DNA of 64,000 nt from Candidatus Zhuqueibacterota bacterium. Its GTDB lineage: Bacteria > Zhuqueibacterota > Zhuqueibacteria > Residuimicrobiales > Krinioviventaceae. Made by a program: the position numbers and the translations under genes. The notes under the pieces are model-generated. The model saw only the letters and a program-made list of their open reading frames with translations. It did no database searches and was not told the DNA's origin. The stretch spans positions 12,917 through 76,916 of the forward strand of contig JAFGJB010000008.1 of assembly GCA_016929295.1 (NCBI GenBank), given 5' to 3'. The first letter of the stretch is position 1. Every line of letters begins with the position of its first letter. Shown here one piece after another: positions 40,389-45,923 of the stretch.

Positions 40389-40718
40389 AACGCACCTCTC
40401 GTAAGTTGTTCATCGTCATGTATCTATTTAAAAATAGACAATTTTTTTCAATTCAGCAAGATGGCGCGTGATAGATCAAGCCAGGCTTAGCTCTTGCTGG
40501 GATTTAACCTCTTTATAACATGATTATATCTTTGACAAGTTCCCGTGTAAATGTGGATTTTCATCATTTGCAAAAAGGCTCTTGTTTTGCGCTGCGATGG
40601 CCAGCAAGCGCCTGCATGTCGCCTTGAGTTATTTTCTGAAATCGAGTATGATTGTGTTGCTATTCAATCCGAGTTTATCTAATTTTGCAGGTTGCGGGCA
40701 ACAGGAAAGGAGATTATA

Positions 40719-41507
40719 GTGTCCATTACAGGAGAGAAATTTCAGCAGCTTGTTGATATAATGGCCAGGCTTCGCGGTGAAGAAGGGTGTCCGTGGGATA
40801 TTGAGCAGACACACACATCGCTCAGCCGGCATGCGCTGGAAGAAGTCTATGAGGTCATCGAGTCGATCGATGAGGGGAGATTTAATGACTTGCCGGGTGA
40901 ACTGGGAGATCTGCTGCTGCAGGTTGTATTTCACGCCCAAATTGCTGCAGACGATGACCGGTTTACGATCAATGATGTGTTGGATGAGATCAATGAGAAG
41001 CTCATCCGTCGTCATCCGCATGTGTTTGGTGATGATGTCATCGAGACGGCAGAGGAACAGACGCAGGCGTGGGAGCAATCCAAGTTGAATCACGAGGGAA
41101 AACATTCTGCCGTTGATGGCGTGCCGAAACAGCTGCCGGCGCTGCTGCGCGCCCACCGCCTGCAAGGCAAGGCTGCGGCCGTAGGTTTTGACTGGGATGT
41201 GATTGAGCCCGTTTGGGGAAAAATCCAAGAAGAGATGGCGGAGTTGCAGCACGCCTGGCAATCCGGGCATATCGCCCACACTCAAGAGGAGCTGGGCGAT
41301 GTTTTATTCGCCGTTGTCAATTTGTCACGTTTTTTGCAAGTTGAACCCGAGCAGGCATTGCGAAATGCCTGCGAGAAATTCACCCGTCGTTTCAAGAAGG
41401 TTGAGGAGGAGTTTAAAAATCGCGGTCAGAAAATGAGCCAGTTGCCGCTCGAAGAATTGGACAGGGTGTGGGATGATGTCAAGGCCCAGGAGAGGAAAAG
41501 CGGCTAG
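40719..41507 (+). CDS. mazG: Nucleoside triphosphate pyrophosphohydrolase MazG
   Basis: GTG start with AGGAAAGGAG SD. Two MazG EExxE-type motifs: CPWDIEQTHTSLSRHALEEVYEVIESI and a second repeat. Confidence 0.85.
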   Translation: MSITGEKFQQLVDIMARLRGEEGCPWDIEQTHTSLSRHALEEVYEVIESIDEGRFNDLPGELGDLLLQVVFHAQIAADDDRFTINDVLDEINEKLIRRHPHVFGDDVIETAEEQTQAWEQSKLNHEGKHSAVDGVPKQLPALLRAHRLQGKAAAVGFDWDVIEPVWGKIQEEMAELQHAWQSGHIAHTQEELGDVLFAVVNLSRFLQVEPEQALRNACEKFTRRFKKVEEEFKNRGQKMSQLPLEELDRVWDDVKAQERKSG

Positions 41508-41994
41508 GCAATTTTTTGAAATGCTGCTCTAGCATGTCCCACGTCTCATACAAGGCTTGCGAGATCACTTTTGTATGTCCCGAGACCGGCATAAAATTCG
41601 TATCGCCATGCCAGCGCGGCACGATATGAAAGTGCAGGTGATCATCAATGCCGGCGCCGGCCACTTTTCCTAAATTCATGCCGATATTCAATCCATCCGC
41701 CCGCATGTATTTTTTGATGATCTCGCTGCTTGCGGTGAGGAGCGACATCATGTCGGTTTGCTCTGGCAAAGTTAACTGCTCGAGGTCGGAAATATGCCGA
41801 TAGGGGACGATCATCAAGTGCCCATTGTTGTAAGGATAAAAATTCATAATAACGAAACATGTTTGCCCGCGATGGAGAATGAGATTATCACGATCGCGTT
41901 GCTGTTTGGGTTTATCACAAAAAATGCAGCTCTCCGGCTTTGGTGACATGATATAGTCCATTCTCCAGGGCGCCCACATATTGTCCATATACAT
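41479..41994 (-). CDS. HIT-family hydrolase
   Basis: CIFC zinc motif and histidine triad DHLHFHIVPR. It is convergent with mazG and overlaps it. Confidence 0.75.
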   Translation of the reverse strand: MYMDNMWAPWRMDYIMSPKPESCIFCDKPKQQRDRDNLILHRGQTCFVIMNFYPYNNGHLMIVPYRHISDLEQLTLPEQTDMMSLLTASSEIIKKYMRADGLNIGMNLGKVAGAGIDDHLHFHIVPRWHGDTNFMPVSGHTKVISQALYETWDMLEQHFKKLPSRFSSPGP

Positions 41995-42063
41995 CTCCTC
42001 GGTTGAGGGATAAAAAAAGGGTACGAGGGATCCTCGTACCCATAGTTGTCTGCCAGAATGTCT

Positions 42064-44139
42064 TCATTCTTGCGCTGTTTTGCTCTCGGCAATGATTTTT
42101 GCTTCGACGTCTTTTGGCGCCGGATCATAGTGCGAAAATGACCGTATGTAGGAGGCCCGTCCGCTCGTCATCGAGCGCAGTTTGGTGGCATAGTCATGCA
42201 GCTCTCCCAGTGGCACTTTGGCCTTGACGAGCTGGAATCGTCCATGAGCTTCAATGCCCGAGATTTTACCGCGTCGAGTGGACAGATCGCCCATGACATC
42301 GCCCATATTTTCCTCTGGGCATTTCACAGTGACTTCATAGATGGGTTCGAGCAAGATGGGTTTTGCTTTCTGCATCATGGCCTTGAAACATTGGCGACCG
42401 GCGATCTGGAAAGCAATGTCTTTGGAATCAACCGGGTGTTCTTTGCCATCATAGAGAATGGCTTTGACATCGACGATTTTATAGCCGGCAATGGCGCCTT
42501 CATCAAGGACTTGCTTGACGCCTTTTTCCACCGAGGGAATGTACACTTGCGAGACGGCGCCGCCGACGACTTCGCTGGCAAATTCAAAGCCGGAGCCGCG
42601 CGGCAGTGGCTCAAGTCGCATCCAGACTTCACCGAACTGGCCGGCGCCGCCCGATTGTTTCTTGTGACGATATTTTTCATCTGCTTTAGCGGTGATCGTT
42701 TCGCGATAGGGAATTTTCGGCTTTTTCGTCATAACGTCAACGCCAAAACGCTCTTTCAGGCGTTTCAGTACAATGTTGAGATGCAACTCGCCATAGCCGG
42801 AGACAACGGTCTGCTTGAGTTCAGGATCGACGAAAATGGTGAAACTTGGATCGATTTCGTGCAGCGTATGCAAACCGGCGCCGATTTTTTCTTCATCTCC
42901 TTTACTTTTGGGGATAACGGCGAGTTGAAAAACGGGTTCCGCAAACTGAATCTCGCGAAATTTAATCGGCGCCTTTTTCGACGCCAGGGTATTGCCCGTG
43001 TGAGTGTCTCTGAGCTTCACCAAGGCGCCAATATCGCCGGCGCGCAGGCCATTCATTTCGGTTCTGCTTTTTCCCAACATCGTGTAAATCTGCCCGATCT
43101 TTTCGTTATTTCCGCGAGAGACATTGAGCACTTCATCGCCCGATTTGATGGCGCCGGAATAAGCTCGAATGAGCGAGAGTTCGCCGACGTGCTGTTCGGA
43201 GATCGTCTTGAAAACGAGCCCGGAAAAATCGCCGCTCTCGGAACAGACCACTTTAATGTCATTGCCCGAGGCATCTTGAGTGCTGTAGGGCGAGAGTGCA
43301 AGGGGCGAGGGCCCGTAGTCATTAATAAAGTCAAGCAAGGTTGTCACGCCAACATTTCGTGACGCCGCACCGCAAAGCACCGGCAATATTTCCTTTTTTA
43401 GAATGCCGGCGCGCAATCCGGTCAGCAGATCTTCTTGACTCAATTCCATTGTCTCAAGATATTTTTCCATGATCACGTCGTCGCACTCGGCGACTTTTTC
43501 TATCAATAGCATGCGCAGCTCGTTCGCACGATCAGTCAAATCGCCGGGAATCTCCTCCTCTTTGAAGGATCCTTTGGCATCGGTAAATGTGATTTTTTTC
43601 ATGCGCAGGAGGTCAATCACAGCATTAAAGCCTTCACCCTGATTCAGTGGAAACTGAAAGACGGTGGCATTATGGCCGTACGATTCCCTGATCGATGCGA
43701 GCGCCTCATCAAATTTTGCATGTTCACGATCGAGCAAATTGACAAAAAACAGGCGAGGTGTTTTGAATTCATCAAGCACTTCAGTGACCATATCGGTGCC
43801 AACTTCAACGCCGGCAATGCCATTCACCAGAACGACCGCTAAATCGGCAACGCGGAGTCCACATCGAACTTCACCAAAAAAGTCAGCATATCCCGGAAGA
43901 TCTATGAGATTGATTTTGCTACTCTTCCATTCAAATTGCATCAACGTGGCGCCGATGGATATTTTACGTTCTATCTCGTCAGGGCTATAATCGGATATCG
44001 TCGTACCATCGTCGATGGCGCCAAAACGATTTGTCACTCCTGCCGCATGAAGCATTGCTTCTGCGAGGGTCGTCTTGCCAACAGATTGATGCGATACCAG
44101 ACTGATATTTCTGATATCTCGAGGCGCATATTCTTTCAC
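42064..44139 (-). CDS. Elongation factor G paralog (EF-G-like translational GTPase) with atypical G3/G4 motifs
   Basis: 691 aa. P-loop SHQSVGKTT. Switch II IDLPGYADF versus canonical DTPGHVDF. G4 NLLD versus NKxD. EF-G domains II-V are recognisable (GAGQFGEVWMRLEP, VYIPSVEKG). Confidence 0.75.
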   Translation of the reverse strand: MKEYAPRDIRNISLVSHQSVGKTTLAEAMLHAAGVTNRFGAIDDGTTISDYSPDEIERKISIGATLMQFEWKSSKINLIDLPGYADFFGEVRCGLRVADLAVVLVNGIAGVEVGTDMVTEVLDEFKTPRLFFVNLLDREHAKFDEALASIRESYGHNATVFQFPLNQGEGFNAVIDLLRMKKITFTDAKGSFKEEEIPGDLTDRANELRMLLIEKVAECDDVIMEKYLETMELSQEDLLTGLRAGILKKEILPVLCGAASRNVGVTTLLDFINDYGPSPLALSPYSTQDASGNDIKVVCSESGDFSGLVFKTISEQHVGELSLIRAYSGAIKSGDEVLNVSRGNNEKIGQIYTMLGKSRTEMNGLRAGDIGALVKLRDTHTGNTLASKKAPIKFREIQFAEPVFQLAVIPKSKGDEEKIGAGLHTLHEIDPSFTIFVDPELKQTVVSGYGELHLNIVLKRLKERFGVDVMTKKPKIPYRETITAKADEKYRHKKQSGGAGQFGEVWMRLEPLPRGSGFEFASEVVGGAVSQVYIPSVEKGVKQVLDEGAIAGYKIVDVKAILYDGKEHPVDSKDIAFQIAGRQCFKAMMQKAKPILLEPIYEVTVKCPEENMGDVMGDLSTRRGKISGIEAHGRFQLVKAKVPLGELHDYATKLRSMTSGRASYIRSFSHYDPAPKDVEAKIIAESKTAQE

Positions 44140-44200
44140 TGTTCTCCTCCTGTGCCGACAAGCGGCTTGGCTTTGTCAGTACAATTTAATCATGTTTTGT

Positions 44201-45760
44201 CTATTTGACAGGTTCATGCGATGATTTTGCCGTCTTTTGGCGTAAAAAGCGCTTGAGGACACGGCCAGTGGGGCTTTTCGGCAAAGCAGCAACTGTTTCG
44301 ACAAACCTGGGACATTTATATACTGGCAGAAAATTTTGACAATAGGTGAAGAGTTCGTCATTTGCTAAACTGGCGCCTTTGGCGAGAACGACAAAAGCTT
44401 TCACTTCAGCGCCGTGTACGGGATCCGGCATTCCAACGACCGCCACCTCATCAACAGCCGGGTGGTCGAGGATGATGTTTTCCACCTCACGCGAATGAAT
44501 CGCAAAACCGCCCTTTGTGATGATATCATCTTTGCGCTCTTGAATGAAGAGGTAATGATCTAGATCCAGATAGCCGATGTCACCCGTTGCCAACCACCCG
44601 TCTTTGAGACGCCGCTCTGTCTCTTTGGGTTGATCCCAATATCCTTTCATGAGACTCGGGCTCTTTACAAAAATCTCGCCACTCTGATTTGGAAAGAGGA
44701 TGCGACCGGCACTGTCACGCACCTGCAATTCCACACCCATGAGCGGCAATCCTGTGGACTCGGATTTTCTGTCGCGACTGATGCGGGTGGCGCTCACCAA
44801 AGGGCCGGCCTCGGTCAGGCCATACGCTTTCAATATTGTCACATTGAATTTATTTTCAAACTCGTATAAAACATCATCGGCAAGGTGACCTCCATAGCAC
44901 ATGCAGTACTTTAAAGAGGGCATGGCGAGGTTGTTCCCGTGAACATTCAAGAGCGCCCGAAACATGCCGGGAACTGCGGGCATGAATGTGACGCCGTTTT
45001 TTTGAATTGTCTCGATGACTTCAGCTGGCTTGAAGCGCGGTAAAATGACAAGTGTGGCGCCTGCTGCCAGCGATGCATGCATCACCACTGTCTGCCCTAA
45101 CGGATGAAAGAGCGGAAGAACGGCAATCACTTTATCTTGTGGGCCGATTTTCAACATTTCTATGCACGTATTCGCATTGAAGAGGATGGCTTCGTGGGTG
45201 AGTTCAGCGCCCATCGCCTCATCAGCGATGCCGGAGGTGTAGTTGATGACGGCAACATCCGATTCTGAAATTGAAAGCTCAGACGCTAGTGGCATGGAGT
45301 GCGTGATAATGTGCGTGAGCGATTTGCTCTCTTTGAAGGCGCGGTCACCCAGGACAAGTAGTTCAACGCATGTCGATGCCGTCTGATAAGCGGAGAGAAC
45401 CTGGGGGAGAAAGGCTTGCCACACGATCAGGATTTTTGCGCCCGAATCTTTCAATTGATGCTCCAGCTCTTTTGCATTGTGCATGAAATTGAGCGGAACA
45501 GCGATGCCGTTGGCAGCCAGGATGGCGTAATAGCTTATGCAGAAATGGGGTACATTGGGAAGCAAAATGGCCACCCGATCTCCTTTCTCAATTCCCAACT
45601 CGACGAGCCCGCCGGCGAGTTTCTTCACGGCATTGATGAAAGAATGATAGGTGATTTCAGTATCTTCAATGACCAGAGCGCGCTGCGAAGGAGCCGACTG
45701 CGCTGAATGATATAATTGTGAGACGAGTGTTGGCACTCTTGATCCGGTTCTAGATTTCAA
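44201..45760 (-). CDS. AMP-dependent synthetase/ligase (long-chain acyl-CoA synthetase-like)
   Basis: 519 aa with AMP-binding motifs INYTSGIADEAMGAELTHEA, YGLTEAG and GWLATGDIGYLD. Confidence 0.8.
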   Translation of the reverse strand: MKSRTGSRVPTLVSQLYHSAQSAPSQRALVIEDTEITYHSFINAVKKLAGGLVELGIEKGDRVAILLPNVPHFCISYYAILAANGIAVPLNFMHNAKELEHQLKDSGAKILIVWQAFLPQVLSAYQTASTCVELLVLGDRAFKESKSLTHIITHSMPLASELSISESDVAVINYTSGIADEAMGAELTHEAILFNANTCIEMLKIGPQDKVIAVLPLFHPLGQTVVMHASLAAGATLVILPRFKPAEVIETIQKNGVTFMPAVPGMFRALLNVHGNNLAMPSLKYCMCYGGHLADDVLYEFENKFNVTILKAYGLTEAGPLVSATRISRDRKSESTGLPLMGVELQVRDSAGRILFPNQSGEIFVKSPSLMKGYWDQPKETERRLKDGWLATGDIGYLDLDHYLFIQERKDDIITKGGFAIHSREVENIILDHPAVDEVAVVGMPDPVHGAEVKAFVVLAKGASLANDELFTYCQNFLPVYKCPRFVETVAALPKSPTGRVLKRFLRQKTAKSSHEPVK

Positions 45761-45904
45761 TTCAGGTGAAATTTACAGACTGCAAAGATACTTTTAATGA
45801 GACAAAATGTCAAGAATTATTTGTGCTGTTCACTCCACCAGAGTGAAGGGATGAATGAGCCATAATCCTGGCAAAGCGATCGAACTTCACTTTTGAAATT
45901 CATT

Positions 45905-45923
45905 TTGTCCCAGCCTGGGACAA
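45905..45923. promoter_or_regulatory. 19-bp near-perfect palindrome TTGTCCCAGCCTGGGACAA in the divergent promoter region
   Basis: 8-bp arms flank a 3-nt centre. It sits between the divergently transcribed ligase (-) and S41 protease (+) genes and is a candidate operator. Confidence 0.35.

Follow-up and report, generated by a model that had tools for sequence, protein, structure and literature searches.

The window, i.e. the whole 64,000-nt stretch of DNA that was analysed, carries an EF-G2 / EFG II gene (fusA2-like) of the phylum KSB1 (Zhuqueibacterota) at 42064–44139 on the minus strand. Open reading frame and translation give a protein of 691 aa with a GTG start codon that is a 100% match to a protein on record. 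An EF-G-like reading frame of this length and position had been noted before without a strand, and it proved to be real. The gene and its surroundings are organised as follows:

40692–41507, plus strand: MazG nucleoside triphosphate pyrophosphohydrolase (Pfam PF03819), convergent with the HIT gene
41479–41994, minus strand: HIT-family protein (Pfam PF01230), co-directional with EF-G2 and downstream of its terminator
42019–42041, minus strand: hairpin resembling an intrinsic terminator (10-bp stem, 7 of its pairs G-C, then T7), 23 nt past the EF-G2 stop
42064–44139, minus strand: EF-G2 gene
44144–44151, minus strand: Shine-Dalgarno box AGGAGGAG, 4 nt 5' of the GTG, read directly from the sequence
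44201–45760, minus strand: AMP-binding acyl-CoA ligase (Pfam PF00501/PF13193), co-directional and directly upstream of EF-G2 with a 61-nt gap

The preliminary description had the gene standing alone by HIT and mazG genes and outside a str operon. While the gene is indeed outside a str operon and HIT and MazG do lie downstream, the gene is not alone: the ligase is found 61 nt upstream, and the arrangement is conserved across the phylum. The ligase accompanies EF-G2 in 18 of 20 phylum loci, HIT in 16 and MazG in 12, and both ligase (with a 4-nt overlap) and HIT are also present at a Calditrichota/Cloacimonadota locus (L029). MazG scored 324.7 bits against NF007113, above its cut-off. A similarity of the HIT protein to ATP adenylyltransferase / Ap4A phosphorylase was seen with NF052622, where its 171.9 bits stay under the cut-off of 290, and the ligase fell below the cut-offs of all NCBIfam long-chain-fatty-acid--CoA ligase models.

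A scan for sigma-70-type promoters found a TTGACA-17-TATCTT site at 45813–45785, 5' of the ligase gene, and no convincing site immediately 5' of EF-G2. Promoters of the FCB superphylum may differ, so we read this as no more than a hint of co-transcription of ligase and EF-G2. Transcription of EF-G2 would probably start in the promoter region of the ligase gene and end at its own terminator. Among metatranscriptome contigs of the same study, one of 151 nt matches 42435–42585 with 2 mismatches; the remaining pieces are short and fall within the domain IV loop that is conserved universally, and these matches do not suffice to infer transcription. A 19-bp palindrome at 45905–45923, 5' of the ligase, might be an operator that would also control EF-G2, but the corresponding regions of 17 related loci, one of them from the same genus (L009), contain no comparable palindrome.

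Domain architecture and GTPase motifs

The following domains and motifs, all on the minus strand, were assigned to the protein (Tth, T. thermophilus EF-G):

43309–44118, minus strand: G domain with G' insert, residues 8–277 (Pfam PF00009, E 3.4e-36)
44065–44094, minus strand: G1 / P-loop SHQSVGKTTL, residues 16–25 (Tth AHIDAGKTT to SHQSVGKTT)
43954–43968, minus strand: G2 / switch I RKISI, residues 58–62, replacing RGITI
43888–43902, minus strand: G3 / switch II DLPGY, residues 80–84 (Tth DTPGH to DLPGY)
43729–43740, minus strand: G4 NLLD, residues 134–137 (Tth NKMD to NLLD), Lys lost, Asn and Asp kept
43360–43371, minus strand: G5 GAAS, residues 257–260 (Tth GSAL to GAAS)
42979–43227, minus strand: domain II, residues 305–387 (PF22042), with EFG II markers Thr312, Gly356 and Lys375
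42721–42945, minus strand: domain III, residues 399–473 (Pfam PF14492)
42361–42720, minus strand: domain IV, residues 474–593 (Pfam PF03764), no Bacteroides-type insertion after Pro511
42631–42669, minus strand: domain IV loop I RHKKQSGGAGQFG, residues 491–503, which include the positively charged loop motif of EFG II (RHKK)
42424–42450, minus strand: domain IV loop II DGKEHPVDS, residues 564–572, tip His conserved (Tth His573)
42103–42354, minus strand: domain V, residues 596–679 (Pfam PF00679)

All five EF-G domains occur in order and above gathering scores (Pfam GTP_EFTU, EF-G_D2, EFG_III, EFG_IV and EFG_C), which bears out the EF-G organisation and length attributed to the protein earlier. 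Conservation within the clade peaks in domain IV (mean column conservation 0.887), where residues 491–495 and 497–502 of loop I are invariant and loop II is near-invariant. The AF2 model (pLDDT 91, pTM 0.85) adopts the extended conformation of ribosome-bound EF-G. It superposes on ribosome-bound EF-G, with a TM of 0.90 for 8DMF and 0.85–0.93 for EF-G structures overall, although a fold search of this kind cannot separate EF-G subfamilies and played no part in the classification.

To map the motifs, the protein was aligned with T. thermophilus EF-G (1DAR and others) by phmmer; the alignment is gap-free before residue 190 and therefore makes the motif positions in KSB1 EF-G2 unambiguous. This alignment confirmed both losses reported earlier, namely that of the switch-II His (DLPGY instead of DTPGH) and that of the G4 Lys (NLLD instead of NKxD), and likewise the intact P-loop (SVGKTT). 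Tyr84, encoded by TAT at 43888–43890, occupies the position of the catalytic His (Tth His87). An indel moving a His into switch II was looked for and rejected, as the alignment is continuous up to residue 190 and a His is found there in none of the clade members, and the motif loss stands. Switch I has also changed, from RGITI to RKISI, which the preliminary description did not mention; Ser61 replaces the Mg-binding Thr, a hallmark of EFG II.

Conservation was tallied across a clade of 120 homologues with 60–100% identity. The catalytic-His position holds Y in 109, R in 9 and F in 2 members, and position 135 of G4 is occupied by R (52), L (31), H (19) and others. Since neither the His nor the G4 Lys is found in any of the 120 homologues, the motif changes are not sequencing noise. 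At the same time, the residues for phosphate/Mg binding and guanine recognition are strictly conserved: P-loop GK[TS] (Gly21, Lys22 and Thr/Ser23 invariant, followed by the EFG II marker Leu25), Arg58 and Ser61 of switch I (120/120), DxPG, Asn134 (120/120) and Asp137 (112/120). The proposal of an altered specificity finds no support, since the last of these, the specificity-determining Asp of G4, is retained along with P-loop Lys/Thr, switch-I Ser and DxPG.

Placement in EFG II and distribution in the phylum

The gene is a well-conserved second EF-G copy from the already described EFG II subfamily (also 'EF-G2' or 'EF-G-like') that was defined by Margus, Remm & Tenson 2011 (PMC3150367). None of the features of canonical EF-G (EFG I), i.e. 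DxPGH, RGITI, NKxD and a location in the str operon, is present. The best NCBIfam model was NF009381 with 898.8 bits, while the canonical EF-G model TIGR00484 reached 694 bits, barely above its cut-off of 659. Five of the six residues diagnostic for EFG II type I are exact (Leu25, Ser61, Thr312, Gly356 and Lys375, against Gly16, Leu25, Ser61, Thr291, Gly333 and Lys/Arg352 in 1WDT numbering; Margus 2011). At position 16 the usual EFG II Gly is a Ser in KSB1 EF-G2, as in 23 of 145 EFG II-type representatives. The type II residues are complete with seven of seven (Asp220, Val254, Leu268, Lys493, Lys494, Glu538 and Gly628, equivalent to Asp216, Val250, Leu264, Lys471, Lys472, Glu513 and Gly603 of 1WDT), mapped via Tth EF-G-1 numbering (Margus 2011, Tables 1-2). 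All markers were located on the alignment to Tth EF-G; further alignments were used as well for G2, Thr312, Gly356, Lys375 and RHKK. Other shared traits are the relaxation of RGITI to xxxSx, where Ser is the fourth residue, and the positively charged loop I (RHKK).

In a FastTree phylogeny of 171 sequences, with no named spdEFG2 reference among them, 6 EFG I-like rows, among them the other two EF-G paralogs of the same genome, were split from 165 EFG II-like rows with an SH-like support of 100. The KSB1 clade (support 99) lies within EFG II, in a 31-row subclade (support 99) together with the Bacteroides EF-G2 representative P0221 (925 bits to 7UVP) and proteins from Chlorobiota and Calditrichota/Cloacimonadota. 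KSB1 EF-G2 is thus placed by its sequence in an FCB-superphylum subclade that contains Bacteroides EF-G2. Domains, tree and gene context all agree with the earlier view that this paralog derives from EF-G and lies apart from the str operon.

The motif losses had been presented as a peculiarity of one gene, whereas they are the rule in EFG II. In 142 of 145 EFG II-type cluster representatives another residue takes the place of the His (Y74, F33, D10, A6 and others; H in only 3), and 62 have lost the G4 Lys. The His is also missing from all three solved EFG II structures (motifs of 1WDT were read from an alignment of the EFG II G-domain profile to PDB chains). As nearly all family members lack the catalytic His, the odd motifs are normal and do not define a new kind of factor. 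NKxD was described as conserved in EFG II (Margus et al. 2011, PMC3150367), from a sample that did not include KSB1; in the wider sample used here the G4 Lys is lost from the 62 representatives above, and it is also lost from KSB1 EF-G2.

A ribosomal protection protein like Tet(M)/Tet(Q) might be suspected from the score of 320.7 bits against the tet_protect HMM (NF012153) and from the closest PDB chain, 7UVP, being labelled 'TetQ'. That score is far below the cut-off of 775, Tet(O) (4V6V) keeps DTPGH in place of DLPGY, the title of 8DMF calls the chain B. thetaiotaomicron EF-G2, and the residues that mark EFG II, like the position in the tree, speak against such a function. We rejected this very improbable reading on the score, switch II, the markers and the tree.

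A search for a canonical fusA elsewhere in the genome, as proposed earlier, was successful: it lies on contig C18 in an rpsL-rpsG-fusA operon, i.e. the str operon, and scores 996.5 bits against TIGR00484. A third EF-G paralog with a KDG insert is encoded on contig C356, the two spanning 997–1011 bits. As in EFG II generally, the KSB1 EF-G2 gene is thus found outside the str operon in a genome that also has an EFG I gene. EF-G2 is present in ~112 of 121 sampled phylum genomes, and the FCB-type EF-G2, from which His and G4 Lys are both gone, has been kept by vertical descent almost throughout this uncultured sediment phylum. The degeneration of several canonical motifs could also be expected from a functionless fusA duplicate in decay. 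However, intact orthologues at 46–90% identity in those genomes, conserved synteny, many invariant positions, a strong Shine-Dalgarno box and a terminator leave hardly any probability to a pseudogene, a reading that the conservation data contradict.

Function and comparison with characterised EF-G2 proteins

Judged from sequence comparison, the KSB1 gene probably encodes an EFG II paralog of the FCB subclade that acts as a nucleotide-binding, ribosome-docking, hydrolysis-poor alternative translocase or ribosome-bound factor. It would still bind guanine nucleotide, although binding is probably weaker or faster-exchanging because the G4 Lys is missing, and it would dock on the ribosome like EF-G with domain IV inserted into the decoding centre. 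Catalysis by a His positioned by the sarcin-ricin loop would be out of its reach. It would therefore serve as an alternative but slow translocase, or as a factor bound to the ribosome, and ribosomes would stimulate its GTP hydrolysis little or not at all. By analogy with Bacteroides EF-G2, it may work alongside EF-G1, most likely in nutrient or energy limitation.

Among solved structures, the closest in the G domain is EF-G2 of B. thetaiotaomicron (fusA2, BT2167; 7UVP/8DMF), which belongs to the same FCB subclade and shares ~40% identity with KSB1 EF-G2. Both are without the switch-II His (Ser vs Tyr), the G4 Lys (NQLD vs NLLD) and RGITI (the motifs of 7UVP/8DMF being GSSGSGKTT, YGYSV, DCPGS and NQLD), and each occurs alongside a canonical EF-G1. 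Bacteroides EF-G2 translocates without GTP hydrolysis (Han et al. 2023, EMBO J, cited through PMC12775393) and is induced upon carbon limitation (PMC6989115). There are also clear differences. Against the NCBIfam model EFG2_Bacteroid (NF058620), KSB1 EF-G2 scored 707.2 bits in two stretches, below the cut-off of 1000, and the gene context in Alistipes is without ligase or HIT, unlike the KSB1 locus. Moreover, the only large insertion of 7UVP relative to EF-G, ~26–29 residues in domain IV after an EPY motif (~29 aa in 7UVP, ~511–540), is present in P0221 and absent from KSB1 EF-G2 (P0001) and 19 of 20 phylum orthologues; a shorter one occurs in a Chlorobiota protein (P0132) and one KSB1 lineage (L024). 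Han and colleagues reportedly found in 2023 that a 26-residue region unique to Bacteroides EF-G2 accounts for its missing GTPase activity, and we infer that the 7UVP insertion is this region. Since KSB1 EF-G2 does not have it, the Bacteroides mechanism may not transfer.

T. thermophilus EF-G-2 (1WDT/2DY1), another EFG II member, resembles KSB1 EF-G2 in that DAPGY has a Tyr in place of the catalytic His and switch I differs from RGITI, and the AF2 model superposes on it at a TM of 0.85. It has been reported with ribosome-dependent and intrinsic GTPase as well as poly(Phe)/translocation activity (bioRxiv 10.64898/2026.05.25.727771; PMC3150367), and a missing His is therefore no proof of GTPase loss. 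The earlier label 'GTPase-deficient' holds in part: it is plausible, as the same is reported for Bacteroides and mycobacterial EF-G2, but the Tyr alone is insufficient for it. KSB1 EF-G2 might thus be an active GTPase-translocase with His-independent hydrolysis (intrinsic or ribosome-stimulated), i.e. a fully GTP-consuming alternative EF-G, which would also fit the missing Bacteroides insertion and the strict conservation of nucleotide-binding residues. We regard this as possible but unlikely. The Thermus protein keeps the G4 Lys (TKLD) that is lost here, has 665 aa, shares ~34% identity and belongs to a different sub-subgroup, while both the tree and the similarity of the G domain make Bacteroides EF-G2, reported without GTPase, the closest relative that has been characterised. 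In addition, the exchange H88Y in mycobacterial EF-G1 nearly abolishes its GTPase.

Mycobacterium smegmatis EF-G2 (9K0Z/9K10) likewise belongs to EFG II, reads DTPGY and has a degenerate switch I, but it keeps the G4 Lys (TKLD), has a P-loop starting with GPSGGGKT and belongs to an actinobacterial sub-subgroup. In mycobacterial EF-G2, Tyr98 replaces the His and ribosome-dependent GTPase is reportedly minimal; the factor is also reported not to recycle ribosomes, to bind non-rotated ribosomes and to have a role in stress. A similar non-translocating, stress-specific regulator on the factor site of the non-rotated 70S or the 50S, with neither translocation nor recycling, would be consistent with the shared Tyr and non-RGITI switch I. 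It is nonetheless quite unlikely for KSB1, given only ~34–40% identity to the actinobacterial/Thermus type, placement in a different subclade, and a domain IV that is the most conserved domain with both tip loops near-invariant, including the loop II His, which fits a retained role in the decoding centre or in translocation.

The preferred reading, a hydrolysis-poor alternative translocase or ribosome-bound factor, might be extended to the neighbourhood. Ligase, EF-G2, HIT and MazG of KSB1 and Calditrichota/Cloacimonadota could form a functional module in which a translocase that has no insertion and hydrolyses poorly is coupled to the metabolism of fatty acids or of adenylates/alarmones in starvation, with ribosome release unlike the insertion-dependent mechanism of Bacteroides. 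We consider this distinctly improbable; if true, the module would represent a connection, regulatory or mechanistic, that has been described for no EF-G2 so far.

Mildly new aspects of the KSB1 orthologue are its phylum-wide presence, the conserved ligase, EF-G2, HIT (and MazG) neighbourhood and the lack of the Bacteroides domain IV insertion, while it adds no new principle. Genes of this type should be annotated as EF-G2 / EFG II rather than 'elongation factor G'. EF-G2-type factors bear on the question of what GTP hydrolysis really contributes to translocation, and to our knowledge just three have been studied so far, with three different answers. As an FCB-type EF-G2 exists without the domain IV insertion linked to missing GTPase in Bacteroides, the KSB1 protein offers a useful natural comparison for the mechanism of EF-G2.

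The altered motifs as a family signature

The candidate (protein P0001) has the full series of EF-G domains in Pfam and lies among the following features.

42064-44139, minus strand: candidate EF-G2 open reading frame, 691 aa, GTG start
4 bases upstream of the EF-G2 start, minus strand: AGGAGGAG box, from sequence reading
42041-42019, minus strand: strong hairpin with a perfect, G+C-rich 10-bp stem and a T7 run after it, 23 nt past the EF-G2 stop and before the HIT start
40692-45760: ligase, EF-G2 and HIT genes in this order with a convergent MazG gene, conserved across KSB1 families (compared loci L009-L029)

Its motif register was fixed by a phmmer alignment to Thermus thermophilus EF-G that is gap-free before residue 190, and the preliminary description of an EF-G paralog with DLPGY and NLLD is correct. 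Unmentioned there were the RGITI change, the minus strand and a co-directional acyl-CoA ligase gene 61 nt upstream. A 388-aa antisense ORF (42196-43362, plus strand) lying wholly within the conserved EF-G2 coding region is most likely a shadow ORF.

GTPase motifs of the candidate versus T. thermophilus EF-G in the phmmer alignment
P-loop: SHQSVGKTT versus AHIDAGKTT
Switch I: RKISI versus RGITI
Switch II: DLPGY versus DTPGH, Tyr84 corresponding to T. thermophilus His87
G4: NLLD versus NKMD
G5: GAAS versus GSAL

Four EF-G subfamilies were defined by Margus et al. 2011 (PMC3150367). Mapped through phmmer alignment to T. thermophilus EF-G, the diagnostic EFG II residues of type I are found at Leu25, Ser61, Thr312, Gly356 and Lys375 (position 16 is Ser, not Gly) and those of type II at Asp220, Val254, Leu268, Lys493-Lys494, Glu538 and Gly628. 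An exhaustive search covered 1.84 billion cluster representatives, and 145 of the best 150 matches, which were examined, carry EFG II markers. Among these 145 proteins the catalytic-His column reads Y74 F33 D10 A6 L4 S4 N4 H3 G3 T2 E1 V1, the G4 Lys is retained in 83 and absent from 62, and 130 still have the G4 Asp; the His and Lys tallies thus make His loss a family rule and Lys loss common. The catalytic His is also absent from all three solved EFG II proteins, namely those of Bacteroides thetaiotaomicron (7UVP/8DMF; DCPGS, NQLD), Mycobacterium smegmatis (9K0Z; DTPGY, TKLD) and T. thermophilus (EF-G-2, 1WDT; DAPGY, TKLD). Close homologues, which come from KSB1 (a candidate division) and Calditrichota, carry the name "elongation factor G". 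The earlier interpretation of a GTPase-deficient or altered-specificity paralog is right in part, but the changed motifs are not special to this gene, being the known EFG II/EF-G2 signature.

Conservation, fold and phylogenetic placement

Across 120 homologues with 60-100% identity to the candidate, Gly21, Lys22, Thr/Ser23, Arg58, Ser61, Asp80, Pro82, Gly83 and Asn134 are invariant and Asp137 is retained in 112. Position 84, the catalytic-His site, is Y109/R9/F2, and position 135 is R52/L31/H19 plus others, with Lys in none. Among the domains, conservation is highest in domain IV (mean column conservation 0.887), whose two tip loops are essentially invariant, including the His of loop II. This pattern argues for a clade that would retain nucleotide binding and decoding-centre function without sarcin-ricin-loop/His catalysis. 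In eight of the 120 (P0075, L019 and further homologues) the G4 Asp is Asn, as in NHLN or NRMN; the equivalent change in EF-Tu and Ras makes these proteins specific for xanthine instead of guanine nucleotides. Nine other members read DLPGR, with Arg replacing Tyr.

A confident AlphaFold2 model, computed from 48 aligned sequences (pLDDT 91, pTM 0.85), confirms the EF-G fold, with TM scores of up to 0.93 to ribosome-bound EF-G structures, 0.90 to 8DMF and 0.85 to 1WDT, a match that does not separate EF-G subfamilies. A FastTree phylogeny of 171 sequences splits EFG I-like proteins, including both other EF-G paralogs of the source genome, from EFG II-like proteins with support 100. The KSB1 clade (support 99) is united with P0221, a homologue that scores 925 bits against 7UVP and represents a sequence cluster with Alistipes members, in a 31-row subclade (support 99) that also holds Chlorobiota and Calditrichota/Cloacimonadota representatives and is an FCB-superphylum EF-G2 lineage. 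Here the G4 Lys is mostly lost (NQLD, NMLD, NALE; N[LRHF]xD in KSB1).

Bacteroides EF-G2 has a domain IV insertion of ~29 residues, whereas the candidate and 19/20 phylum orthologues have none; Chlorobiota and one KSB1 family have a shorter version. Since the insertion is absent and the candidate falls below the NCBIfam EFG2_Bacteroid cut-off, it is a relative of Bacteroides EF-G2 outside that narrow group. An FCB-type EF-G2 without this insertion is a modest new detail. Family f8 of the phylum contains a longer EF-G2 (L024:5001-7118, genome G074; about 706 aa, 46-48% identity) with a ~20-residue domain IV insertion resembling that of Chlorobiota proteins, and with the candidate as query no EF-G2-type match was found in 7/11 f8 genomes.

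EF-G complement and gene neighbourhood

The source assembly, a 4.3-Mb MAG of 367 contigs (96% complete), contains three EF-G-class genes. A canonical fusA, for which the preliminary description had suggested searching the genome, is present on contig C18, as judged from its position 3' of rpsL and rpsG and its motifs (AHIDAGKTT, RGITI, DTPGH, NKMD). The paralog on contig C356 (L001:1426-3579, outside the window) keeps DTPGH, RGITI and NKCD and has a KDG insertion within switch I. On TIGR00484 (NCBIfam) these two score 997-1011 bits and the candidate 694, its best NCBIfam score being 899 bits (NF009381). Margus et al. 2011 (PMC3150367) define spdEFG1 by the KDG insertion; this type resembles mitochondrial EF-G1 and has been described solely in Spirochaetes, Planctomycetes and delta-proteobacteria. 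Here the KDG paralog occurs alongside a str-operon EF-G and an EFG II. Its orthologues (at least 69% identity) are confined to certain families (49/121 phylum genomes), and a three-paralog complement in part of the phylum is a modest new detail. So is the near-universal retention of EF-G2, a P0001-type gene with 46-90% identity being present in about 112 of 121 sampled phylum genomes (tallied by hand); canonical EF-G has about 40-43% identity to the candidate in the same table.

Across 20 loci, each drawn from the phylum's various families, a co-directional AMP-binding acyl-CoA ligase gene precedes EF-G2 in 18, a co-directional HIT gene follows it in 16 and a convergent MazG gene is found in 12, and this conserved neighbourhood likewise adds modestly to what is known. 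The ligase-EF-G2-HIT order recurs in one Calditrichota/Cloacimonadota contig (with a 4-nt ligase/EF-G2 overlap) and was not found in the Chlorobiaceae or Alistipes loci examined; in one Chlorobi bacterium the HIT gene lies two genes away from EF-G2. The MazG protein scores above its model's cut-off, and the HIT protein resembles ATP adenylyltransferase with a score under the cut-off. Co-regulation under starvation is our guess. Given the hairpin and T7 between the EF-G2 stop and the HIT start, HIT is probably transcribed separately or by read-through, even though its position next to EF-G2 is conserved. Upstream of the ligase lies a 19-bp palindrome (45905-45923), for which the matching regions of 17 related loci, one of them from a same-genus genome, showed no counterpart.

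Comparison with characterised EF-G2 proteins

Bacteroides EF-G2, in the account of Han et al. 2023 cited in PMC12775393, translocates slowly without GTP hydrolysis, and it is induced on carbon starvation (PMC6989115). Mycobacterial EF-G2 is described in the literature as having minimal GTPase activity and a role in stress, and H88Y in mycobacterial EF-G1 nearly abolishes GTPase activity. Thermus EF-G-2, with Tyr at the His position, is reported as an active GTPase and translocase (bioRxiv 10.64898/2026.05.25.727771; PMC3150367). The GTPase state of the candidate is less certain because the Bacteroides insertion is missing. We favour the reading that the candidate may act as a hydrolysis-poor alternative translocase, on account of the conservation within its clade and the Bacteroides, mycobacterial and Thermus precedents.
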